A stretch of DNA of 64,000 nt from a virus (taxonomy: Duplodnaviria > Caudoviricetes): IMG/VR virus record IMGVR_UViG_3300034410_000474, positions 17,575 through 81,574 of that record. One strand, 5' to 3'. The position numbers and the translations under genes were made by a program. Below the pieces are notes generated by a model. It saw only the letters and a program-made list of their open reading frames with translations, was not told the DNA's origin and did not search any database. Every line of letters starts with the position of its first letter. Position 1 is the first letter of the stretch. Shown here piece by piece: positions 21,496 to 52,775 of this stretch.

Positions 21496-21918
21496 TTATA
21501 GTTTCCCATCTTCTCTAAGTTGGGCCCTGATTTTTGTTGCTGAGATTTCATGAATCTCTTTTCCAAGATCGTGCTCGGTAAAAGTATAGCCGACACCTCG
21601 ACCATAGCTAATATCCACAATGTTAGGAACGCAAATAATAATATACTCGTGACCATTATAATAACCCTCCGCCGCTAGTCCGGCTTCAATTTGTTCGATT
21701 ACTTTTATTTCACCAAAGGGATTATCAGACTGATCAACGGTACGTCCACCGCCTGCATCTTTATCTGTTATCCCGCCTACGTCTCTGACCATAATTGCAA
21801 CTTGTCCAGTGACTTCTAAGGCCCTTTTAAAAAGAGCTGTATGTCCATCGTGCCAAGGTTGCCAACGCCCTAGCATTTGAGCTGTGGGCTTCTGATAGTC
21901 AAAATATTCTTTCATCAT
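21496..21918 (-). CDS. Small HxGH nucleotidyltransferase (cytidylyltransferase-like), APS-kinase-associated
   Basis: LGRWQPWHDGH, VPNIVDISYGRGVGY, ISATKIR. Confidence 0.8.
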   Translation of the reverse strand: MMKEYFDYQKPTAQMLGRWQPWHDGHTALFKRALEVTGQVAIMVRDVGGITDKDAGGGRTVDQSDNPFGEIKVIEQIEAGLAAEGYYNGHEYIIICVPNIVDISYGRGVGYTFTEHDLGKEIHEISATKIRAQLREDGKL

Positions 21919-22142
21919 GATTCATCTTTCCTCCTTAAACCAATTTTGATGTACTTATACCACAATCTTTCGTGACCATAATACAAGACGAATTTAATGA
22001 TAAGATCAGCAACAAATACAAGTCCGATTGCTTTTGGCGGTAAACCAAAGTACCACGCTATTAAAACTGTTGTTACACTAGCTATTATACGCCAAGTTAT
22101 TGCTTTTGTCAAATGACGAATTGGTCTTACTGATTCAGTCAT
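21915..22142 (-). CDS. DUF2061-type small membrane protein
   Basis: RHL.KAITWRI...K.VLYY.HER.W signature. Confidence 0.8.
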   Translation of the reverse strand: MTESVRPIRHLTKAITWRIIASVTTVLIAWYFGLPPKAIGLVFVADLIIKFVLYYGHERLWYKYIKIGLRRKDES

Positions 22143-22582
22143 TTTTGATCTCGTTTTTCGCTGTGCTTTCTTTGCATGAATACTGATATAACCTGCATCA
22201 AAGTTTGATGAGTATCATCGAACCATTCTGAAACTTTGTAATCACATTGAGTAGGAGGTACGAACATTTTATTTGTATCTTCGTAACGTCCCTCTTCAAT
22301 AGTATCCATCCACACAGTAAAATCTGGATTGAAAGCTAATCTCGCTTCCTCGGTTGGACAAACAAAATCTGTAACTGCAATTGCTCCGGCTTTAACTGCA
22401 CCGTCGCTTAAATGTCTCATACGATTTGCTTGTCTCATACGACCTTCAGGAGTAAAATCCCAGTCGTTATATTCTTCGCGAACTTCGTCTGCATTAATGT
22501 GAACTGCACCTAGCAATTCAGCAAGAGGTTTTGCCAGTGTCGTCTTACCTGAACCTGGCAATCCAAATATCAAGATTTTCAT
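22139..22582 (-). CDS. cysC: Adenylyl-sulfate (APS) kinase-like protein
   Basis: GLPGSGKTTLA P-loop, NADEVR, DWDFTPEGRMRQA.RM, DFVCP; short form. Confidence 0.8.
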   Translation of the reverse strand: MKILIFGLPGSGKTTLAKPLAELLGAVHINADEVREEYNDWDFTPEGRMRQANRMRHLSDGAVKAGAIAVTDFVCPTEEARLAFNPDFTVWMDTIEEGRYEDTNKMFVPPTQCDYKVSEWFDDTHQTLMQVISVFMQRKHSEKRDQK

Positions 22583-29358: not shown

Positions 29359-31335
29359 TTAATTCAACGATTCCCACGCGAAACCAGTATATACTTCGAG
29401 CTTTTGGTTACTAGTATTCCAAAGAACCATACCTGCCACTGCTGTAAGCGCGTTACGTTCAGTAGTTGTAAATTGACCAAACTGAACTGGTAATTCATCT
29501 ACAATAACTGCTCTGTTAGTACCTTGGTTATCTGCAAAAACACTAATACCATAAGTACCAGCCGAAGCTCCGCTTACCATCAGGTCAATTCTATCTTCGT
29601 ATGAATTATTTGTACCACCGACTCGTATGGTAGATCTTGTTGTAGTTCCAGCAACGTAACTAATTTCCATTGGCACCGCGCCGTCAGTATTTTCAATTGC
29701 GTATCCAGCTGGATCTAAATCTGCAGAAAGAGTACTTAAATCTGCTGGTTCAAATGTAAATTCAGAAGTTACATCAGAATATGTTAACGTACCACCTGCG
29801 TTTGGAGAACCAGTAGTTACTGAGAAGTCAGAAGCAGAAATTCCGTTATCTGGTCCTTGAAGACCTTGAACAGATTGAATACCTTGGAAACCTTGAACAC
29901 CTTGAGTAGCAATTGGACCGATTAGACCTTGAGTACCTTGGAAACCTTCATTACCTTGAATACCTTGTGCACCAACTCCGTCAGTACCAGTCGCGCCTTG
30001 AAAACCACCTGCTCCTTGTAAACCATTTGGCCCTGGAACAGCTTCACCTTGAATACCTTGTATGCTTAAACCTTGTGTACCCTGAACTCCTTGTGGTCCA
30101 ATATCTCCAACTAAACCTTGAGCACCTGAACCTGTTAAACCCTGAACGCCCGGATCACCAATACCGGTAACACCTTGGATACCTTGAACAGAACCTGCTG
30201 GTCCTTGAACACCTTGAGGTCCATCTGGTCCATCTCCACCATCTCCACCAAGTAATCCTTGAATACCAGTTGTACCTTGGATGCCTTGAGCACCTTCGCC
30301 TTCAGGACCTTCTTCTCCAGGTCCACCTTGAATACCCTGAATACCCTGCAATCCGAATCCTGCTGGACCGTCTGCACCTTGAACACCTTGAGCTCCTGCA
30401 GCGTCTGTACCTTGCATACCTTGGAAACCAGGTTGTCCATCATTACCTAATGAACCTTGAACACCTTGTGTACCTTGGACTGTAGCACCCGCTGGAGCAG
30501 ATGGTCCTTGGATACCTTGAGCACCAGATCCGCCATCGTTACCAGTAGTTCCTTGACTACCGTCTGCACCTTGAATACCTTGAGAACCAAAACCAGTTAA
30601 ACCTCTTTCGCCTTGAAGGCCTTGAACGCCTTGGTTACCAGCGCCTCCGCCACCTCCGCCTTCAGGTCCTTGAATACCTTGGTTACCAGATAATCCAATA
30701 CCGTTTGTACCTTGAGCTCCAGTAAAACCTTGAAGACCGTTTCCGCCAGTTTGACCAGTGAAACCTTGAACACCTTGTGCTCCGCCTCCACCACCACCGC
30801 CATCGGTAATTCCGTAACCTGCTAATGTAGTTGGTGTATTTGTAATTGTGCTCCAATCTTGGTTATGTCCAGATGGAGGAAAAGATGATGGTACGCCAGT
30901 TAAACTTGAATATGCAAAATCTTGAGTAAGACCTGAAGCTGCAATTGTAATACTGTCGTTTGTTGAATTTGTTGTAAGAGTAATATTTGAACCAGCAATG
31001 AACTCTACGGTATCTGTTGCTGTATCTGCGGAAACACTTGCTTGACCTGAAACTGATAAAATACTGAAAGCGTTTTGGTTAACGTCACCGCCACCGCCTC
31101 CGCCGCCAGAACCTAGGTTACCCCAAGCACCGTTTTGATATCCTTCAAAGGAATTAAGACTTGTGTTGTATCTTAAGTAACCATCTGATGGTGAACCGTC
31201 TCTTGCGCTCGTATCGCCGGCTGGAATTTGAATAGATCCTGTTGCACTTGTACGTGGAGCAATAGCATCAAAGTTATCGTCCATTTCGTCATAAGTTAAG
31301 GCTGAGCCTTTATCATTTCTTTTTGTAATTGACAT
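29359..31335 (-). CDS. Collagen-like fibre protein
   Basis: N-terminal KGSALTYDEMDDNF virion-attachment motif; about 320-aa interrupted G-X-Y repeat; C-terminal TTERNAL..GMVLWNT...KLEVY. Confidence 0.85.
   Translation of the reverse strand: MSITKRNDKGSALTYDEMDDNFDAIAPRTSATGSIQIPAGDTSARDGSPSDGYLRYNTSLNSFEGYQNGAWGNLGSGGGGGGGDVNQNAFSILSVSGQASVSADTATDTVEFIAGSNITLTTNSTNDSITIAASGLTQDFAYSSLTGVPSSFPPSGHNQDWSTITNTPTTLAGYGITDGGGGGGGAQGVQGFTGQTGGNGLQGFTGAQGTNGIGLSGNQGIQGPEGGGGGGAGNQGVQGLQGERGLTGFGSQGIQGADGSQGTTGNDGGSGAQGIQGPSAPAGATVQGTQGVQGSLGNDGQPGFQGMQGTDAAGAQGVQGADGPAGFGLQGIQGIQGGPGEEGPEGEGAQGIQGTTGIQGLLGGDGGDGPDGPQGVQGPAGSVQGIQGVTGIGDPGVQGLTGSGAQGLVGDIGPQGVQGTQGLSIQGIQGEAVPGPNGLQGAGGFQGATGTDGVGAQGIQGNEGFQGTQGLIGPIATQGVQGFQGIQSVQGLQGPDNGISASDFSVTTGSPNAGGTLTYSDVTSEFTFEPADLSTLSADLDPAGYAIENTDGAVPMEISYVAGTTTRSTIRVGGTNNSYEDRIDLMVSGASAGTYGISVFADNQGTNRAVIVDELPVQFGQFTTTERNALTAVAGMVLWNTSNQKLEVYTGFAWESLN
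29838..30790 (-). repeat. Gln-rich collagen G-X-Y repeat (QG.QG)
   Basis: Repeated GIQG/GVQG/GAQG/GLQG; DNA motif accttg recurring on + strand. Confidence 0.9.
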
Positions 31336-42946: not shown

Positions 42947-43654
42947 TTACCCTGCCGTGTCGGCCATTTGTGTAAGTTTATTATATGTGTCACGCCAATC
43001 TTTTACGTGATAATTCTTTCCACGTTTGTTTGCTTTTGCCAGTGGATAGTCATTACCGCCTGGCTCCATTTTGTCTCCAAAGAAACGAATATCATCGTCT
43101 TCATTAAAGTCTTCTAAAATTTGTCTTTTGTCGCCGCCAGTTCTACCGATATCTATACCAGTTTCACCACCAACAGTTGCGGTAATATTTTCGAATTCAG
43201 AATTAATTTGATATGCAATACTCTCGCGTTCACGGTTTAATTCATCATACTTAACATATTCAGCTCTTTCATCCATAGTCGCATTACGACCAACTATAGA
43301 AAAGTTCCACATACCTCTTCTTTTTTCGATATGATTACCTGTTCTAAGAGGAAATAAACTTGCTTGCAACCAACCAAGTAATAAATTCTCTAAGTCTTTT
43401 GGTGCAGTAAACGACTTAGTGTTAACCCGTTTACCGCGATGCCATACGTCATTACCTTGACAGTTATAGCAAGTTACTACGTTTTCGCATATCTCTGGAC
43501 CAAGCTGCTCGAGTGTTTTATCGTAGTCACTACCAGTAACTAACCAAACACTATTTTTGCTTATAAAGTCTACAAACCATAATCTAAATTCTTCGTCAAT
43601 TCTACTTCTGCTTGGTGTAAGTGTTCCATCGACGTCGAAAACGTATCTTATCAT
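42947..43654 (-). CDS. HAD-IIB (eukaryote-type) phosphomannomutase-like enzyme
   Basis: FDVDGTLTPSR, LVTGSD, HIEKR.GM.NFSI.GRN, GGETGIDI, FFGDKMEPGGNDYPL. Confidence 0.88.
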   Translation of the reverse strand: MIRYVFDVDGTLTPSRSRIDEEFRLWFVDFISKNSVWLVTGSDYDKTLEQLGPEICENVVTCYNCQGNDVWHRGKRVNTKSFTAPKDLENLLLGWLQASLFPLRTGNHIEKRRGMWNFSIVGRNATMDERAEYVKYDELNRERESIAYQINSEFENITATVGGETGIDIGRTGGDKRQILEDFNEDDDIRFFGDKMEPGGNDYPLAKANKRGKNYHVKDWRDTYNKLTQMADTAG

Positions 43655-43845
43655 ATTTCATCCGTTCTAATACACATCATTCCTACACCAGGTGTTGGTG
43701 GAGTATATTCTTGCATAATCAAGTAACCTGCAAATTCGCACGCTTCTCTAGACTCAAAAGCCTTTATTTTAGAATAGTGCATTGAGTCGTCGCCGCCTGA
43801 ATTAGACTGCAGAACGACTACTAAGAATAAAGTAAAATAACTCAT
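43651..43845 (-). CDS. Small exported protein
   Basis: N-terminal hydrophobic segment; F...E.C motif. Confidence 0.5.
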   Translation of the reverse strand: MSYFTLFLVVVLQSNSGGDDSMHYSKIKAFESREACEFAGYLIMQEYTPPTPGVGMMCIRTDEI

Positions 43846-44021
43846 TATTCATGTCCTGTCCAATGCTTTCTATCATGTGCTTTGCGAGCAAGTTGAGAAA
43901 ACCTTTCAGCCACACGACTGATAAGTTCATTGTTTTCCCTTGCTGCTAAGTTATGCAAGAAGCTTTCGAGTTCACCATCTTTTTTACGGATTTCAGTGGT
44001 ATCATAAATATCATTTTTCAT
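43845..44021 (-). CDS. 58-aa hypothetical protein (below cutoff)
   Basis: MKNDIYDTTEIRKKDGELESFLHNLAARENNELISRVAERFSQLARKAHDRKHWTGHE*, overlapping both neighbours. Confidence 0.55.
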   Translation of the reverse strand: MKNDIYDTTEIRKKDGELESFLHNLAARENNELISRVAERFSQLARKAHDRKHWTGHE

Positions 44022-44304
44022 AATTGATTCCTAACCAGTTTCCTATTTTTGTTTTTAACCAACCAGATTCTTGTTTAAGTACAAGACCATAATCAGTTAC
44101 TTTTAAAATCTCTTCACCAGCAACATTTATTGAAACATCATTATATGTTATATCGTCAATAGCATACGTATTAAGAGTTCCAATTTGCATGTTCATATTA
44201 TATGAGTAAGTAAGGCCGTTTTCGGTTCCTGAATAGTCTAAAGGTAATTCGATCTGCTCAGGATAGAGATCGTAAAATTTAAATTCCATTTGTTTATTAA
44301 ACAT
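44011..44304 (-). CDS. Hypothetical protein
   Basis: Start at 44304 preferred (short overlap with upstream stop). Confidence 0.5.
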   Translation of the reverse strand: MFNKQMEFKFYDLYPEQIELPLDYSGTENGLTYSYNMNMQIGTLNTYAIDDITYNDVSINVAGEEILKVTDYGLVLKQESGWLKTKIGNWLGINYEK

Positions 44305-44707
44305 GTTCGCATACCCTTTGTCTGAGATCGCTTGAACTAAATCTATGATCTCGTTTATTGAAATAGAGATCAATATCGCGTTTGCGGCAAATATCTTTAC
44401 CAGTAAACTCTTTATCTCTATACTCTTCTCCTAATATTCTAACATCAATATCGAGCATTGTCAATATGTCTTCGACATCTTTTTCACAATTATATGGAAT
44501 AATTTCATCAACATAACGAACACCATTAAGTTGTGTATAGCGTTCTACAATTGTTTGAACAGGAGCTTTTTTATCATCACGATCTTGACTTGGATCCATT
44601 TGTAATCCACAGATAAGATAATCACATTGAGATTTTGCTTCTCTTAACATCGATACATGTCCAGCATGTAATAGATCAAAGGTACTAAATGTAATCCCTA
44701 CAATCAT
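44297..44707 (-). CDS. Glycerol-3-phosphate cytidylyltransferase-like (TagD-like)
   Basis: TFSTFDLLHAGH, ERY.QL...YVDEIIPY, GEEY, FSSSDLR. Confidence 0.88.
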   Translation of the reverse strand: MIVGITFSTFDLLHAGHVSMLREAKSQCDYLICGLQMDPSQDRDDKKAPVQTIVERYTQLNGVRYVDEIIPYNCEKDVEDILTMLDIDVRILGEEYRDKEFTGKDICRKRDIDLYFNKRDHRFSSSDLRQRVCEHV

Positions 44708-45438
44708 GATTGAATCCTCTTATTATAATCTATTGCCTCACTAATAATAGACAAATCGCAACTTATTCTTTTTGCAGATTCGACTATGGCCGCAGTATCT
44801 TTTGGAAAGCAATGCCCACCAAAACCACGTTCATCGGTAACTTTACTGTGGCTGTCACCAATGCGCCTATCTTTAGTTATAAAACGAGCAACTTCGTGAT
44901 AGCTAATATCAGACTTTTCGCATAAATCATAAACTTGATTAAAGAAAGCAACTTTAGTAGCTAAGAAACTATTGCGCATATACTTAGCAACAATCAAAGC
45001 TTCAGGAGTTCCAACCTCTACATCTACATTAAGACGTTCAGCTAAAAGTGTACTCCAAAAAGAAATGTTACCACCACCAATATAAACAACGTCTTGATTC
45101 TTAAAATCTTCCAATGCATTTTGAGCACGTAAGAACTCAGGTGAAAATGTAATTGATCTATCAGGAAACATTCTTTGTATTTCAGACCAGCCTTCGAGAG
45201 ATATAGTACTTTTGATTAGAATAGGAGCATCAGGAGACATTTGTATTGCATCATAAACGTTCTCCATATAACATGCTCCGGTTCTACTTTCTGGAGTACT
45301 TACTGCAATAATTACAGCATCTGCATATTGATTAATATCTTTAGAACCTAATGCAGGATCATACACATGATAATCGTCCGAGAATGCTAATGCATGTGCT
45401 CTACCTACGAAACCATATCCAAAAATCTGTACCTTCAC
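44704..45438 (-). CDS. Short UDP-glucose/GDP-mannose dehydrogenase-family protein (probable GTG start)
   Basis: GYGFVG, IKST, SPEFLR, KY..NSFLATKV.FFN, GFGGHCFPKD; lacks usual C-terminal domain. Confidence 0.85.
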   Translation of the reverse strand: MKVQIFGYGFVGRAHALAFSDDYHVYDPALGSKDINQYADAVIIAVSTPESRTGACYMENVYDAIQMSPDAPILIKSTISLEGWSEIQRMFPDRSITFSPEFLRAQNALEDFKNQDVVYIGGGNISFWSTLLAERLNVDVEVGTPEALIVAKYMRNSFLATKVAFFNQVYDLCEKSDISYHEVARFITKDRRIGDSHSKVTDERGFGGHCFPKDTAAIVESAKRISCDLSIISEAIDYNKRIQS

Positions 45439-45758
45439 GTGATAATCCAATCAATATCCATAATATTCTTTGGTTGTTCATCCATAGGAATAAAAAGATC
45501 ATGCTCATAATTCTTTATTACAGCCCACCCATACGATGTTGCGCCATAAGAATCTTTCCAACACTCATAGGTTGAGCCTGAATGACCATCAAAGTAATAC
45601 TTTTCATCGTCTTCAGTTACTTTTACGACACCAGAGTTTAATCTCCAGTCGTCGCCATTAAAGGGATTACCTTTTATCCAAGTACCAAACACTCTATAAT
45701 GAGGATCAGTTCCTTCGATCTTTACAAGCATCCATTTGTCTGGTCTGTATTTACTCAT
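45435..45758 (-). CDS. Conserved phage hypothetical protein
   Basis: PDKWMLVKI, WRLNSG, GHSGSTYEC. Confidence 0.7.
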   Translation of the reverse strand: MSKYRPDKWMLVKIEGTDPHYRVFGTWIKGNPFNGDDWRLNSGVVKVTEDDEKYYFDGHSGSTYECWKDSYGATSYGWAVIKNYEHDLFIPMDEQPKNIMDIDWIIT

Positions 45759-48232: not shown

Positions 48233-48261
48233 ATTATAAAACATTGAAAAGCAAATGTCAA
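48233..48261 (-). promoter_or_regulatory. Early sigma70-type promoter
   Basis: TTGACA-N17-TATAAT. Confidence 0.88.
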
Positions 48262-48264
48262 CGA

Positions 48265-48498
48265 TTAATTTAAGTTATTTAACATATTTTTTAGGCGCCA
48301 AAGAAGGGTTTTTGTCTCTACAGTGTCATTCCAACACTCATCTCGTGACGTTATATCAGTTAAAAGTTCTTTTAACATCATATTTTCCTGCCTCAGAGCA
48401 TCATTATCTCTGAGAGCAGATTGTTTATCTTTCTTATGATGGTCTATTTCGAGCTGTAGACCTTCAACCGTTCTTTCGTTTATTTTTACCTTTGCCAT
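48265..48498 (-). CDS. Small coiled-coil protein
   Basis: Heptad-like ORF overlapping upstream gene end. Confidence 0.55.
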   Translation of the reverse strand: MAKVKINERTVEGLQLEIDHHKKDKQSALRDNDALRQENMMLKELLTDITSRDECWNDTVETKTLLWRLKNMLNNLN

Positions 48499-50059
48499 TT
48501 GGCTTCACCACTCCATACTTCTTAAAGAATGCGTAATCACTTGCGTATGCGCGTTTAATAAATTCGATTTGTTCTTCTGAAAAGTCATCAGCAGTAATCT
48601 CTTTATTAGTAACGTTATGAGCTACATCGATATCAAAGAACTCATTAACATCTTCACGTTTTACTACTTCAAATTCATCAAAGTTTTCAGTATCAACAAA
48701 TCTGCATTGTGGATGGAAATGATGTACTTGATGTCCACCAGTAATCTTATTTAAATTACGGAAGAACAAATCAATCTTTTCTTCTTTTGAGAGTAAAGTT
48801 AAATCCTTATCGAAAGAAGAGAAGATGTCTCTACCATAATCATAATAACGTTGTTTTGGAGTTAAGTAAACATTTATTAATGAGATGAAACGATCGATTG
48901 GATCAGTAAAAATCATAATAGGTTTTTTGTTTTCTTTAATCAATGTATTATAGAGTCTTGTTCCACGCATTACTTGAATACGCTTTGGATAACTTTCTTT
49001 AATAGTTACTGAACAAGATCGTGGGACTTCAAACCAAAGCTTTTCGTGATTGTTTTCAAGATCATACATTAACGGCCATTCTAACTTTTGGCACCAATAA
49101 CAATTACAATCGTTAAATGCATATGTTGAATTAATATCTACTTCAGGTAATAAGAAATCTTTTACAAACGGTGTATCAAAAATAAGATCAGGTAATAGGC
49201 TATGCGGATAGCGTTTAAGTATATGGTCAGTATTACTATCAGGAGCAATATTACCTTCAACAGGTTCTGTAGTATCTACGAATTGTTTATAATCTGCATA
49301 TCCACCTTCACTATGCCATTTAAAGCTATCGAATGCATGAGCAAACGAATCAGCTTTTGTTTGGCGTTGTTGTGACGATCCCATCCATGCAAAGTGCCAA
49401 CCCATATCTTCTTGAATAATACCTTGATTTGTTGGAAACCGAATTGGAATGCTAATGTTACCACATCGAATATTACTTAGTTTGCAATGTAACAATTGTT
49501 CTTTTGTTGCAAAGAACATAGCACGTTTCCATATAACCGGTACATCATTTCTATGGTGGATACGTAAATCAGCACGACCTTGTAGATATACTAATGGAAT
49601 TTTAATTATAATGTTTGGATGATTGTGGCATTGTTGTGCTACCCATTTAATATGCTTTGGATCGATAATCTCATCTGCATCTCCATAAATGAATACGTCA
49701 CGCTTATCAAAATCACGTAAGGCATTCATTACAGCATCTTTTTGCAAACGTTCTCTTACTCTAGCATATAGAGATTCTTTGTTATTAGCATTTACACCTG
49801 CGTTTCTTCGATCAATTTCGAGTATTTCGAGATCTTCTGTTTCAGGAATATCATGCTCTACATAGATAATCTTTTCAATCGGTAGTCCAAGTTTACGAGC
49901 AACTTCAGGAAATTTGCGATCTACATCTTTACCAGCATGTGTCTTATTTGACTCAACGATAATAAACTTATCTACATGTTCTTTTAATAAGTTAACACGT
50001 AAATAGAGTAGCTCTTCTCCATAGGGAGCAAACCAAGGAAAACAATCTACAATCTTCAT
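48464..50059 (-). CDS. GT17 (GnT-III-like) glycosyltransferase fused to a sulfotransferase-family-2 domain
   Basis: N-terminal VDCF..ELL.LR..L..VDKFIIVES, DADEI, GWHFAWMG; C-terminal VPRSCSVTIK, FTDPIDRFIS, HFHPQ, Y.SDY.FF. Confidence 0.78.
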   Translation of the reverse strand: MKIVDCFPWFAPYGEELLYLRVNLLKEHVDKFIIVESNKTHAGKDVDRKFPEVARKLGLPIEKIIYVEHDIPETEDLEILEIDRRNAGVNANNKESLYARVRERLQKDAVMNALRDFDKRDVFIYGDADEIIDPKHIKWVAQQCHNHPNIIIKIPLVYLQGRADLRIHHRNDVPVIWKRAMFFATKEQLLHCKLSNIRCGNISIPIRFPTNQGIIQEDMGWHFAWMGSSQQRQTKADSFAHAFDSFKWHSEGGYADYKQFVDTTEPVEGNIAPDSNTDHILKRYPHSLLPDLIFDTPFVKDFLLPEVDINSTYAFNDCNCYWCQKLEWPLMYDLENNHEKLWFEVPRSCSVTIKESYPKRIQVMRGTRLYNTLIKENKKPIMIFTDPIDRFISLINVYLTPKQRYYDYGRDIFSSFDKDLTLLSKEEKIDLFFRNLNKITGGHQVHHFHPQCRFVDTENFDEFEVVKREDVNEFFDIDVAHNVTNKEITADDFSEEQIEFIKRAYASDYAFFKKYGVVKPNGKGKNKRKNG

Positions 50060-50062
50060 TAC

Positions 50063-50662
50063 TTACTTCCTTCTTTCTAGTATAGTTAAACCATTACAAT
50101 TTTGTTTGTGCTTTCTAAATTTCCATTGAGGATTAGCGATAATGAACTCAATAATAGCAGGTAATAATCCTTGATTATCCATTGCTTTACGATTAGGATT
50201 TGCAGCCCAATCAACTTGCTCATCACGTACTCCATATGTATGAGTATCGTGAAATGCTAGATATTTACGAGCAGCATTACCGTGCAATTTAAGTTCTTCT
50301 CTTAATTGCTGTTGGCTGTGCCAAGTATCAATAAAGATTAAGTCGGTTGGCTCAATAAGAATACTCAGCGTATTTGCTTTAACATATTCTACATCTTTAC
50401 CAACCTTCTTAGCAATTTTGAATAGATTCATTAGAGGATCGTGTATTTCAAGATCATATGCTCTTAATGATACAGGCGCTTTAAGAAATGCTTTTGTACT
50501 TGCACCAAAACGACTGCCAAACTCAGTAACGTGAGTACAATCTTCTGCAAGAGTTAATAAGTCGTGAAGATGTTCATCAATATCTGACTTAGTACTCTTT
50601 TCTTTTTGATACTCATTTTCTATGAGTTCGTTCCATTCACTTAAATTCATACGTCTAACCAC
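50063..50662 (-). CDS. Class I SAM-dependent methyltransferase (Methyltransf_24-like)
   Basis: VTEFGSRFGAST, DLIFIDTWHS, FHDT. Confidence 0.85.
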   Translation of the reverse strand: MVRRMNLSEWNELIENEYQKEKSTKSDIDEHLHDLLTLAEDCTHVTEFGSRFGASTKAFLKAPVSLRAYDLEIHDPLMNLFKIAKKVGKDVEYVKANTLSILIEPTDLIFIDTWHSQQQLREELKLHGNAARKYLAFHDTHTYGVRDEQVDWAANPNRKAMDNQGLLPAIIEFIIANPQWKFRKHKQNCNGLTILERRK

Positions 50663-51672
50663 CTTCTATTTTCTAATGTCCAAGTTACAACTTCAGCGAT
50701 ACGTTGATCAACTGGTCTCGGGGTCCATCCCATCTTTGCCATTCGTTCACCAGAGAGAGCATAACGAAGGTCGTGACCAGGGCGACTACTGTGGAAATCC
50801 ATGAATTCATACTTTAACTCCTTGCCTTGTGCATCGGCAATCATTTGTGCGAGTTCTAAATTGTTCAATTCAGTCGCACCACAGATATTGAACTTAGGAC
50901 ATTTAACACCGGTATTATTTTCAATGTTAAGAGTATCAGTATGTTCTAATAAGAACAGTGTAGCATCAGCAACATCTTCGGCATGAATATAATGTCGTGA
51001 TCCTGGTATTGTTTTTGTTTCATCACTGTGAATAGTTACCGTACCACCATCTCGTACATTACGAATAGTCATAGGGATAAACTTTTCTGGATGCTGTCGT
51101 TCACCAAATACGTTCATTGTATGCGTAATATAAATTGGCATATCATAAGTATTTTGGTAAGCTACTGCTAATTCCTCTCCACCAGCTTTAGATGCTGAGT
51201 AAGGATTAGTTGAATTATAACGATCATATTCGTCGTACTTAATACCTTCAGGAGCAGGACCAAAGACTTCATCAGTTGAGAAGTATAGGAAGCGTTCCAA
51301 GTTAGGTTGTTTACGAGCAAATTCTAGAATGTTACATGTACCAACAACGTTATCCATTACGAATTCCATTGGATGGTCAATTGAACGATCTACGTGAGAG
51401 CCTGCTGCCAAATGAGCAACAATATCAACGTCACCAATATCTGCTAAGAGCATTGGATTAAATTCTGCTTTTAAATCGTGAAAGATTGTACGAAGACGTG
51501 AACGTTCTTCAGGGGTGCGATCTTGTAAAAGATCATGTAATCTGTTTAGGTTACCACTATAATCTAAACGATCTACAGTAACGATATCCCAATCAGTTCT
51601 TTTGAGTACCTGGTTGATTAAGTGATGGGCAATAAAGCCACCGCCACCAGTAATAAGTATTTTCTTAGCCAT
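50647..51672 (-). CDS. NDP-sugar 4,6-dehydratase (RmlB-like extended SDR)
   Basis: ITGGGGFIAHH, HLAAGSHVDRS, STDEVFG, YSASK, RPGHDLRY. Confidence 0.92.
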   Translation of the reverse strand: MAKKILITGGGGFIAHHLINQVLKRTDWDIVTVDRLDYSGNLNRLHDLLQDRTPEERSRLRTIFHDLKAEFNPMLLADIGDVDIVAHLAAGSHVDRSIDHPMEFVMDNVVGTCNILEFARKQPNLERFLYFSTDEVFGPAPEGIKYDEYDRYNSTNPYSASKAGGEELAVAYQNTYDMPIYITHTMNVFGERQHPEKFIPMTIRNVRDGGTVTIHSDETKTIPGSRHYIHAEDVADATLFLLEHTDTLNIENNTGVKCPKFNICGATELNNLELAQMIADAQGKELKYEFMDFHSSRPGHDLRYALSGERMAKMGWTPRPVDQRIAEVVTWTLENRRWLDV

Positions 51673-51706
51673 TATATCTCCGTCATCAATAACATTTTGT
51701 AAAAGT

Positions 51707-51734
51707 ACTCCATAGATCCGAAAACCTATGGAGT
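51707..51734 (-). other. 12-bp UUCG hairpin between late promoter and epimerase gene
   Basis: ACTCCATAGGTT-TTCG-GATCTATGGAGT followed by ACTTTT. Confidence 0.75.
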
Positions 51735-51745
51735 GTTGTTAACTT

Positions 51746-51753
51746 TATTTATA
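51746..51753 (-). promoter_or_regulatory. Late promoter TATAAATA
   Basis: Exact consensus immediately after porin stop. Confidence 0.75.
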
Positions 51754-51754
51754 A

Positions 51755-52702
51755 TCAGAAATTGTATTTGATCGTAGCTTTAAAGCTATCATCATAATTG
51801 CGGTTTCCGTATGGACCCACCATTCCTTTGTCGTGATGTAAGTATACTCCATACTCCATCGGACCTTGATTATAAACTGCACCAAAGTAGTTAAAAGTAA
51901 AGCCGATATCATCGTCTTCTACTCTATGTGCTGAAAGAATTACGTCTTTAATTCCATAGTACATAACACCGTAGTCTTTACGGACATTACCACCATCGTC
52001 AAATTGTTCGTAACCTAATCCAATCGGTAATCCTACTGGATACAATGATGTTCCAATTGAATAACCACGTTGGGTTGTTTTATCTTCAGCACTAATTTGT
52101 AAGTATGATACATCAAAGATTGCTAAACGTGCTGTTGCACCTGCGTACATTGATTTGGTTTCTGGTTCATAACCTACAATACCACCAATTGGTAATTTCT
52201 TTCTTTGAAGTTTATATTGATTGAATTTAAATTCATCGTTATTAACCCAATCACCAAACGTAACAACTACTTTTTCTTTATGGTCGATACGTGAGTTTGG
52301 TTCAATGACAATTACTGGAGCTCCAATTTTAGATGTTTTTGCAAAACCTAAACGTTGAGCATCAGTTTCACCAATATATACTCTTGTATTTCCGATACCA
52401 AAGCCCATTTGTTTTTCTTGGACCGTGTTATCTAATGTACGATCTAACGAATAGTTAGTATCATACCGTGCTCCAGCACCTGCCCAGTTAAATGGACCAT
52501 CGTTTAGTTCAGTCTGAAACCCTGCGAAAACTTCCGCTCTTGAACTCATGTCACCTTCTGGCCATTCGCCATCGATATACATTTCAACATTACCATTATA
52601 ATATAGACCGGATTTTTCTTCTTCTTTTTGTTCATGTCCGTCTGCATAAACGTTTGTCGCAAATAGCGATAAGCACATCATTGTGCTAGTTATTAGTTTC
52701 AT
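51755..52702 (-). CDS. Outer-membrane beta-barrel (porin-like) protein
   Basis: Signal peptide MKLITSTMMCLSLFATNVYA; alternating beta-strand pattern; C-terminal ATIKYNF beta-signal. Confidence 0.7.
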   Translation of the reverse strand: MKLITSTMMCLSLFATNVYADGHEQKEEEKSGLYYNGNVEMYIDGEWPEGDMSSRAEVFAGFQTELNDGPFNWAGAGARYDTNYSLDRTLDNTVQEKQMGFGIGNTRVYIGETDAQRLGFAKTSKIGAPVIVIEPNSRIDHKEKVVVTFGDWVNNDEFKFNQYKLQRKKLPIGGIVGYEPETKSMYAGATARLAIFDVSYLQISAEDKTTQRGYSIGTSLYPVGLPIGLGYEQFDDGGNVRKDYGVMYYGIKDVILSAHRVEDDDIGFTFNYFGAVYNQGPMEYGVYLHHDKGMVGPYGNRNYDDSFKATIKYNF

Positions 52703-52775
52703 TTTTGAACCTTTCATATGTGGCGCATGTCCTTAAACGCCGGTTAACCGAATCTTCCCAGATTCATGTGAAGTA

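Follow-up and report, generated by a model that had tools for sequence, protein, structure and literature searches.

A soluble GT17-sulfotransferase-like fusion protein in a putative glycan-tailoring gene unit of an uncultured marine T4-like myovirus

In an uncultured T4-like myovirus of marine origin, a single gene encodes a 531-aa protein that is probably a soluble, cytoplasmic, two-domain glycan-tailoring enzyme, in which a glycosyltransferase of family GT17 with a GT-A fold is joined to a sulfotransferase of the PAPS type, and which would contribute to a sulfated glycan late in infection; we put the probability of this reading at about 60%. Its open reading frame occupies 48464..50059 on the minus strand, as do all features of its gene unit described below, in a window of 64,000 nt, the whole stretch of DNA that was analysed. 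The motifs quoted for this ORF in the original prediction were all recovered by translation at the computed coordinates, and the protein is predicted to be soluble from the lack of any hydrophobic segment (maximum Kyte-Doolittle value 1.18 over 19 residues). Full-length homologues form about 80 clusters at 55-95% identity, and 51 fused copies were found in viral contigs, intact wherever complete. All 51 carry PRSCS and CxCxWC, and HHFHPQ is present in each of them save one ORF that ends at a contig edge. Since these motifs are kept across 51 fused homologues at 52-90% identity, they are not due to chance. The prediction of a GT17 plus sulfotransferase protein holds for the architecture, through a Pfam GT17 match, a GT-A model and transitive sulfotransferase homology; the claims made for its product went too far.

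The N-terminal domain (residues 1-310; 49130..50059), as judged from Pfam, an AF2 model and Foldseek, is a GT-A fold glycosyltransferase of the GT17 family with an invariant DxD. A HMMER comparison with Glyco_transf_17 (PF04724), proposed as a check of the prediction, gave 30.3 bits against a gathering score of 26, with residues 16-151 aligned to positions 86-203 of the 348 in the profile, and a precomputed match to the same family is recorded for nearly all full-length fusion homologues. The DxD motif DADEI (D127-A-D129-E130; 49667-49681) and the motif GWHFAWMG (49379-49402) stand out in the translation; across 25 sequences, D127, D129, E130 and GWHF-WMG do not vary. The AF2 model has a pLDDT of 91.3, and Foldseek matched it to the GT-A folds of SpsA, K4CP and chondroitin synthase at E values of 7e-7 to 1e-5; neither a GT17 profile run against PDB sequences nor the fold search found a GT17 structure in the PDB. 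The domain would catalyse metal-dependent transfer of a sugar from a nucleotide sugar. The further statement that GT17 adds beta-1,4-GlcNAc is established for eukaryotic GnT-III only and is not transferable at such distance. GnT-III (MGAT3), a Golgi membrane protein that places the bisecting GlcNAc on N-glycans, shares the DxD and GWH motifs with the phage domain, whose Pfam match is partial, and to our knowledge the N-glycan acceptor of eukaryotes is absent from bacteria and phages. Closer to hand, the stand-alone GT17 proteins of the cyanomyoviruses S-B05, RN05-S and S-H68 are 30% identical to residues 1-138.

Identification of the C-terminal domain (residues 311-531; 48467..49129), which ends in a disordered Lys-rich tail (48467-48505), required a less direct route through profile homology, an AF2 model and fold matches. 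The suggested HMMER check against Sulfotransfer_2 fails: PF03567 (gathering score 22 bits) is not matched by residues 311-531 or residues 264-531 at E values up to 10, nor by the whole protein. Nor did Pfam at the same threshold, NCBIfam or PHROGs yield a useful match for the domain, the sole Pfam row, PhiKZ_gp119 at E 0.12, being of no use. A profile built from 16 homologues of the domain (A1) and searched against 1.84 billion representatives at E values up to 1e-3 retrieved 110 relatives, however, and 54 of the 86 that were scanned match PF03567, with a best E value of 1.1e-14. When this profile and a second one (A2) were searched against PDB sequences nothing significant was found; heparan sulfate sulfotransferases appeared at non-significant E values of 0.04-3.5, aligned on the PB motif, and a match to ARHGEF16 was rejected as limited to the HHFHP string.

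Structure comparison points the same way. With the AF2 model of the domain (pLDDT 85) as query, a search of 48,161 representative chains returned sulfotransferases in all of the top 18 positions (Z 3.8-7.2), led by heparan sulfate (HS) 2-O-sulfotransferase (3f5f; Z 7.2 over 167 residues, rmsd 4.5) and NDST1 (Z 7.1). According to the tool's own warning, Z-scores of 7.2 and below fall in a range that common structural arrangements can reach; since the scores are moderate, the fold assignment rests on the consistency of the list. Foldseek against the PDB likewise returned almost only sulfotransferases, at E values of at least 0.027 and TM scores of 0.2-0.29 that are informative by the composition of the list only. 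Among BFVD models the domain matched the "sulfotransferase family protein" of Prochlorococcus phage P-SSM7 (E 7e-6) and also proteins of ACG-2014f and S-T4. The PF03567 membership of the 54 relatives, the top 18 structures and the cyanophage model matches together identify a divergent relative of Sulfotransfer_2, in agreement with the sulfotransferase-2-like domain originally proposed; on this combination of sequence and model evidence, we place the domain in the Sulfotransfer_2 lineage, as a divergent member confined to phages.

With HS 2-O-sulfotransferase and PF03567 in general, the C-terminal domain has in common a helix with PxxRxxS and the strand-loop-helix whose loop reads P-[KR]-x-G-[ST]. 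In contrast to the carbohydrate sulfotransferases of PF03567, which are Golgi type II membrane proteins, the phage domain is about 210 aa long, soluble and cytoplasmic, and differs further in its PAPS-loop Arg, an extra N-terminal CxCxxC, HHFxPQ and the fusion to a glycosyltransferase. The annotated sulfotransferases of P-SSM7, ACG-2014f, S-T4 and Ralstonia phage phiRSL1 (BFVD E 7e-6 to 6e-4, probability 0.99-1.00) are likewise small (about 190-290 aa) and soluble, come mostly from marine T4-like phages and are known by annotation only; unlike the fusion, they are stand-alone proteins, and they lie beyond the reach of tblastn from the phage domain. A 429-aa Megaviridae protein annotated as "Glycosyltransferase family 25" also matches the sulfotransferase-like model (E 1e-4). 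A parallel in layout is NDST (N-deacetylase/N-sulfotransferase), in which a glycan-processing and a sulfotransferase domain share one polypeptide, although the partner domain and lineage differ and NDST is eukaryotic and membrane-bound.

The fusion gene is the third of a unit, as originally described, following genes for an NDP-sugar dehydratase-like protein and a putative methyltransferase, and synteny of the three is kept at 51 of 55 related viral loci. The first gene (50647..51672) encodes an RmlB-like, NDP-hexose 4,6-dehydratase-like short-chain dehydrogenase with Pfam matches to Epimerase (168 bits) and GDP_Man_Dehyd (161 bits) and a TIGR01181 score of 243 bits, which is under the equivalog cut-off; it is present in 51 of the 55 loci at 68-96% identity. 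The second (50063..50662), whose start overlaps the end of the first, encodes a putative SAM methyltransferase of 199 aa, recognised by a weak Methyltransf_24 match (17 bits, below the cut-off) and by its nearest ESM-Atlas clusters, which are viral and have members with Methyltransf_24 (31%) or RMNT_CmcI (19%). The likely product of the unit would be a sulfated, methylated glycan that contains a 6-deoxyhexose and is made late in infection.

In sister phages the slot after the dehydratase and methyltransferase genes is occupied either by GT17-only genes (319-320 aa; L053-L056) or by genes for the sulfotransferase-like (ST-like) domain alone (198 aa; L057, L058). Two further proteins of about 200 aa that seemed to be stand-alone, P0128 and P0141, match the C-terminal part of the fused ORFs L028 and L021 at full or nearly full identity; they are probably gene-call fragments and were not counted as split forms. 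Elsewhere in metagenomes, the ST-like domain or GT17 is joined to methyltransferases, TPR repeats, DUF6445 or cupin-type domains. The methyltransferase of the window showed no significant pairwise BLAST similarity (E 0.02-0.3) to Methyltransf_24 domains that occur in fusions with GT17 (P0113) or with an ST-like domain (P0152).

These arrangements bear on the order of the two reactions. Since genes for each domain alone share the slot, the proposal that one polypeptide adds and then sulfates the same sugar is plausible rather than established. The two domains could instead be independent tailoring enzymes that act at different positions or on different sugars, joined for economy of co-expression. 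The sharing of one slot by fused and separate forms is what this alternative would lead one to expect, as are the other fusion partners of both domains and the presence in the window of further sugar genes, encoding PMM, UDP-glucose-dehydrogenase-like and TagD-like cytidylyltransferase proteins. Fusion is nevertheless the dominant and stable state, found at 51 of 55 loci across 52-90% identity, and the fused ST-like domains form one clade (SH-aLRT 97); a stable fusion usually joins steps of one pathway, which counts against independence. We hold this alternative to be possible, though on balance not probable, and it departs from the two-step reading in reaction order and site only.

As to whether the C-terminal domain is an active, PAPS-dependent enzyme, the family consensus reads IPKNGS...RDPxxRFxS...HHFxPQ, and translation of the fusion gene gives a PAPS-loop-like VPRSCSVTIK (48998-49027), a 3′-phosphate-site-like TDPIDRFIS (48881-48907) and HHFHPQ (48707-48724). 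The Arg noted in the original prediction at the position of the usual PAPS-loop Lys, which is the family consensus, was read correctly and is invariant in the 51 fused loci; according to a review, PF03567 is defined by a PAPS-loop Lys or Arg together with PxxRxxS (PMC11625862). The latter motif is kept as DPIDRFIS, with P77, R80 and S83 (domain numbering) invariant in profile A1 and P77 and R80 invariant across all 86 family sequences, and a weak alignment puts it on the PxxRxxS of 3-OST-5. H137 of HHFHPQ (domain numbering) is conserved in at least 90% of the family; the catalytic base of HS2ST is His142 (PMC6094399). CNCYWC (49091..49108), first taken for a linker, proves to be part of the domain, as family comparison shows that CxCxxC opens nearly all of the stand-alone members of about 200 aa. 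In the mechanism that we favour, the domain would most likely transfer sulfate from PAPS to a hydroxyl of the same glycan, with Arg347 standing in for the Lys normally found in the PAPS loop, Pro387, Arg390 and Ser393 as the PxxRxxS 3′-phosphate site, and the HHFHPQ histidines as candidate catalytic base.

A second alternative is that the domain has a sulfotransferase fold without PAPS-dependent activity, either as a pseudo-enzyme that has a nucleotide or an anionic glycan as its ligand and serves to position GT17, or as an enzyme whose donor has no 3′-phosphate, such as APS. Both phosphate-contact positions depart from the family norm: besides the change of Lys to Arg, the Arg found eight positions ahead of the conserved Ser, the counterpart of the one in the Sulfotransfer_1 motif RxxxDxxxS, is replaced by Thr or Ser throughout the fused and ST-only clade. 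At least 90% of the family have Arg here, and the sister group has Ser, Asp or Asn; the loss of this Arg came before the change from Lys to Arg and distinguishes a single supported clade (SH-aLRT 97-98). One may speculate that, through loss of this 3′-phosphate Arg, APS has taken the place of PAPS as donor in the fused and ST-only clade, and the missing direct HMM match to any sulfotransferase family also sits well with an altered function. Active sulfotransferases with an Arg in the PAPS loop do exist, however, in Stf0 and in NodH with its RXG motif (PMC11625862). Changes from Lys to Arg have arisen more than once, independently, in the family tree, and PxxRxxS, the HH motif and K354 are invariant, a pattern more in line with a conserved active site than with decay. 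The free-standing gene of ST-only phages argues, moreover, against the domain being a pure accessory to GT17, and we regard loss of PAPS-dependent activity as unlikely.

P-loop nucleotide kinases have a common core with sulfotransferases, and adenylate and guanylate kinases appear lower in the structure list (Z 3-3.8), but a kinase-like phosphotransferase acting on the sugar or acceptor is very improbable, given that Walker A GxxxxGK[ST] is absent and the loop has instead the sulfotransferase form P-[KR]-x-[GAC]-[ST], with PxxRxxS in addition, that sulfotransferases align at Z 5-7.2 over 137-167 residues as against about 90-100 residues for kinases, and that none of the 86 scanned relatives matches a kinase family, compared with the 54 that match PF03567.

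The ST-like domain gave no tblastn match at E values up to 0.01 in 50,697 GenBank phage records, in keeping with the earlier remark that the architecture is unfamiliar from any characterised phage. Among 185,579 prokaryote species genomes searched with profile A1, the fused and ST-only clade occurs on a single contig, whose genes follow the phage order and which was most likely mis-binned. The gene family is common in seawater, with near-identical DNA in the marine metagenomes of at least seven studies.

Sulfated glycans are typical of marine organisms, and we know of no experimental demonstration of sulfation by a bacteriophage. If the fusion protein is active, abundant ocean phages would draw on host sulfate, PAPS and nucleotide sugars to build a sulfated structure, with possible effects on virion charge, on adsorption and on how readily particles stick to marine gels, or else on the infected cell's surface. 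Possible acceptors are a virion protein, for example a collagen-like fibre, and a precursor of a host envelope glycan. Virion glycosylation in mycobacteriophages employs glycosyltransferases and an O-methyltransferase that are expressed late and act on cytoplasmic virion proteins; those cassettes are not known to include a sulfotransferase, use other glycosyltransferase families and lie beside structural genes. The window itself encodes a Gln/Thr/Ser-rich collagen-like fibre at 29359-31335. That the unit decorates this fibre or another part of the virion with a sulfated, methylated deoxyhexose glycan is an idea that we consider doubtful. If true, it would provide the first sulfated glycoconjugate on any phage virion and fulfil a prediction made in 2010, which named bacterial and phage collagen-like or tail-collar proteins as substrates of linked sulfotransferases (PMC2938197). 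Independently of the acceptor, the protein offers a sulfotransferase scaffold that is compact (about 210 aa) and soluble, has a Cys cluster and is unusual in the Arg of its PAPS loop, and the natural fused and split variants provide material on the coupling of glycosyl transfer and sulfation.

The box TATAAATA (51746..51753), which resembles a T4 late promoter, lies 74-81 nt upstream of the dehydratase start and is followed by a hairpin and a conserved leader. Of 35 distinct relatives, 34 have its ATAAATA core in the 120 nt upstream of the dehydratase gene, compared with 3.5% of random 120-nt windows, and the same box also precedes the capsid and sheath genes in the window. The description of the unit as a late operon stands as regards this conserved T4-late-type box; the timing, which rests on the motif, was put too strongly, and we infer late transcription of the three genes on that basis. 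Four RNA-labelled runs contain short contigs of relatives only (90-97% identity), among them one of 232 nt inside the ST-like domain and pieces of the dehydratase gene; DNA carry-over is possible, and neither transcription as such nor its starts or timing can be read from them.

The phage's own candidate for PAPS supply is weak: a 147-aa kinase matches APS_kinase at 34 bits over the P-loop half only, with AAA_33 scoring higher. An APS-kinase-like gene accompanies the fusion in two of 19 related viral records, all of them fragments that are 6-41% complete, which makes this count uninformative. Longest contigs of equal length (156,499 and 54,384) in the kinase and fusion clusters are a hint that the two genes may occur together. 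The dehydratase, methyltransferase and fusion genes are located between nucleotide-metabolism and lysis-type genes. Downstream, a 77-aa coiled-coil-like ORF (48265..48498), for which the domain scan gave no family match, shares 35 nt with the end of the fusion gene; 50 of the 55 loci have it, mostly immediately after the fusion, and it may be the fourth gene of the unit.

The best reading of the 531-aa protein encoded at 48464-50059 (minus strand) is that of a bifunctional tailoring enzyme. As judged from sequence and modelled structure, its N-terminal GT-A domain would add a sugar and a PAPS-type sulfotransferase domain would then sulfate the resulting glycan or a neighbouring residue. Bifunctional enzymes with a sulfotransferase domain exist, NDST being an example. 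New here are the fusion of a GT17 with a sulfotransferase-like (ST) domain, its conserved late-type unit, and a divergent clade, restricted to phages, whose members have a loop of Arg type and a Cys motif. Phage sulfotransferase genes as such have been annotated already, with a function called unclear (PMC10580990). Translation recovered every motif quoted in the original prediction at its expected coordinates, and since hydrophobic segments are lacking (Kyte-Doolittle maximum over 19 residues, 1.18) the protein is predicted to be soluble and cytoplasmic. The IMG/VR record containing the window is 81.6 kb long and an estimated 38% complete. T4-type portal, sheath, major head protein and large terminase are all encoded in the window. 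No cultured phage has a head protein more than 64.5% identical to this one; the closest are those of Sinorhizobium phiM12-like phages, cyanomyoviruses and Melnitz phages.

Assignment of the N-terminal domain to the GT17 family, with a GT-A fold, is confirmed by profile score, invariant motifs and model matches taken together. The Pfam profile Glyco_transf_17 scored 30.3 bits (gathering score 26), in a match restricted to profile positions 86-203 of 348. In an alignment of stand-alone (313-337 aa) and fused homologues at 42-74% identity, the DxD residues D127, D129 and E130 and the GWHF-WMG motif are invariant. A sequence search of the PDB found no GT17 structure; the AlphaFold model built from this alignment (pLDDT 91.3) matched SpsA, chondroitin synthases and the polymerase K4CP, all GT-A, and related nucleotidyltransferases, with E-values of 7e-7 to 1e-5. 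The GlcNAc specificity of eukaryotic GnT-III cannot be transferred to the phage domain.

The C-terminal domain had been predicted to be sulfotransferase-2-like, and this identity stands on profile relatives, fold and viral models but not on a direct HMM match. Pfam, Sulfotransfer_2 included, gave no match to the domain even at E up to 10, NCBIfam and PHROGs scans gave nothing, and profile searches of PDB sequences produced no significant match. Three independent routes nevertheless converge. First, a profile of 16 close homologues, run against 1.84 billion cluster representatives, retrieved 110 relatives, mostly proteins of ~200 aa; Sulfotransfer_2 (PF03567) was the only family to recur among the 86 scanned individually, with 54 matches (best E 1.1e-14). 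Second, when the AlphaFold model (pLDDT 85.4) was compared with 48,161 representative chains, the best 18 matches were sulfotransferases without exception, with heparan sulfate 2-O-sulfotransferase (Z 7.2 over 167 residues, rmsd 4.5) and NDST1 (Z 7.1) at the top; these Z-scores are moderate, so the structural evidence lies in the consistency of the match list. Foldseek on the PDB likewise returned sulfotransferases almost exclusively, with weak E-values. Third, among predicted viral structures the model matched an annotated sulfotransferase family protein of Prochlorococcus phage P-SSM7 (E 7e-6) and others so annotated in Ralstonia phage phiRSL1 and Synechococcus phages ACG-2014f and S-T4, and in the ESM Atlas the domain falls among clusters of ~190 aa whose membership is 96-100% viral; in some of them 20% of members carry PF03567.

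The family consensus reads CxCxYC ... W-x-E-I-P-K-N-G-S ... R-D-P-x-x-R-F-x-S ... H-H-F-x-P-Q ... N-x-S ... Y-x-x-D-Y. A review from 2024 (PMC11625862) takes a Lys in the PAPS loop and a 3′-phosphate motif, PxxRxxS, as the definition of PF03567, and describes an Arg in place of that Lys in mycobacterial Stf0 and an RXG loop in NodH. As originally predicted, the loop of the fusion protein (VPRSCSVTIK) carries Arg. Its PxxRxxS motif is intact (DPIDRFIS), and both are invariant in 51 viral copies. Eight residues before the Ser, where at least 90% of the family have Arg (RDP), the fused and ST-only clade has Thr or Ser. In a quick maximum-likelihood tree the loss of this Arg came first, in a 23-row clade (SH-aLRT 97), and Lys was exchanged for Arg later, within a 20-row clade (SH-aLRT 98) comprising all fused forms and their ST-only relatives, and independently in several further branches. 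Because the RDP Arg is lost, it is possible that the domain is a pseudo-enzyme or uses an altered donor. By analogy with His142, the catalytic base of HS2ST (PMC6094399), the HH motif may supply the base. That the domain is a kinase is unlikely; P-loop kinases appear in the structure list only below Z 3.8. The CNCYWC motif, originally taken for a linker, instead starts most stand-alone family members, and may bind metal or form disulfides. A Lys-rich, disordered C-terminal tail (KPNGKGKNKRKNG; 48467-48505, minus strand; pLDDT below 50) is confined to the closest fusion relatives and missing from more distant fused and stand-alone forms.

The predicted gene order of dehydratase, methyltransferase and fusion held throughout the fused loci (51 of 55 related viral-contig loci), the fused gene always lying 3′ of an RmlB-like 4,6-dehydratase and a putative methyltransferase of ~190 aa; downstream of it there is usually a small coiled-coil ORF as well as a SleB-like hydrolase. 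Four loci (L053-L056) carry a 319-320-aa GT17 gene without the sulfotransferase-like domain. In the same slot, another phage (L057, L058) has a sulfotransferase-like gene alone (198 aa), with no GT17. Dehydratase and methyltransferase thus form a constant core to which the two domains attach as separable modules, and because these occur separately, the two steps may or may not be sequential on one sugar. Cyanomyoviruses have only the GT17 part in common with the fusion protein, and no ST-domain homologue was detectable in GenBank phage records. Scanning 185,579 prokaryotic species genomes with clade-specific peptide patterns gave one relative. The contig that carries it, 10 kb long and part of a metagenome bin, has exactly the gene order of the phage and is most likely mis-binned phage DNA. 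Elsewhere GT17 is fused to DUF6445, methyltransferases, TPR repeats or cupin-type domains, and the ST-like domain to TPR repeats, FkbM or Methyltransf_24 methyltransferases, DUF6445 or DUF2061. Metagenomic proteins (P0087-P0120, P0145-P0152) shuffle GT17, ST-like, DUF6445 (PF20043), FkbM, Methyltransf_24, TPR and cupin-type PF01050 domains, as in MT21-MT24-ST-DUF6445 (843 aa) and GT17-DUF6445 (~525 aa), in what looks like a combinatorial marine toolkit for glycan or peptide tailoring.

The family assignment of the unit's methyltransferase is weak; in its closest Atlas clusters the assigned family is Methyltransf_24 or, for 19% of members, rhamnosyl-O-methyltransferase/CmcI, a relation that would suit a 6-deoxyhexose and is only a lead. 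The 320-aa secreted porin-like gene between DUF454 and the dehydratase (51755-52717, minus strand) matches nothing in Pfam, NCBIfam or PHROG; it is a variable insertion, and only 11 of the 55 related loci have it at this junction. Other sugar-nucleotide genes are found close by (42947-45450, minus strand). One encodes a eukaryote-type phosphomannomutase (PF03332, 112 bits). Two more, which keep synteny with the fusion in ~35 of 55 loci, encode a UDP-glucose/GDP-mannose dehydrogenase-like protein of 248 aa, matching the first two family domains only, and a TagD/RfaE-like cytidylyl- or adenylyltransferase of 136 aa.

Expression signals support a late unit of three or four genes, as far as sequence can indicate. 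A TATAAATA box lies 74-81 nt upstream of the dehydratase start and recurs ahead of capsid, sheath and other structural genes in the window; 34 of 35 distinct relatives have its ATAAATA core no more than 120 nt ahead of the dehydratase gene, irrespective of the upstream gene, against only 3.5% of random windows. The unit's genes overlap or abut. RNA-library contigs of relatives were too few and too short to read timing. In the dehydratase leader (51673-51754, minus strand) the box is followed by an 8-bp hairpin (CTCCATAG...CTATGGAG), usually kept among relatives despite differing sequence, and then by ATGTTATTGATGACGGAG, a highly conserved stretch that can be read as a mini-ORF of 7 codons, its stop codon overlapping the ATG of the dehydratase. 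Directly 3′ of the 77-aa ORF, ahead of the SleB-like cell-wall hydrolase gene, a sigma-70 promoter matching the consensus at 12 of 12 positions (TTGACA, 17 nt, TATAAT; 48233-48261, minus strand) suggests that an early unit begins right after the late glycan unit.

For a putatively soluble, cytoplasmic enzyme behind a late-type promoter, virion proteins awaiting assembly would be a fitting target, and so, just as well, would a host envelope glycan precursor modified in the cytoplasm. The phage has a gene for a collagen-like fibre, and a 2010 study by Iyer and colleagues predicted that linked sulfotransferases act on collagen-like and tail-collar proteins (PMC2938197). PAPS may be supplied by a three-gene set at 21496-22582 (minus strand), a suggestive candidate for a phage sulfate-activation kit. 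Its P-loop kinase (147 aa) scores 34 bits on APS_kinase, over the P-loop half only, and 38 bits on AAA_33. A membrane protein of 75 aa matches DUF2061 (46 bits), and for the HxGH nucleotidyltransferase (140 aa) the best named match is NMN adenylyltransferase (21.5 bits), with ATP-sulfurylase at only 17.5 bits. JGI automatic annotation calls the kinase homologues adenylylsulfate kinase, the kinase and HxGH genes adjoin in two related phages (L060, L061), and in one metagenomic protein (P0234) a sulfotransferase-like domain is fused to DUF2061.
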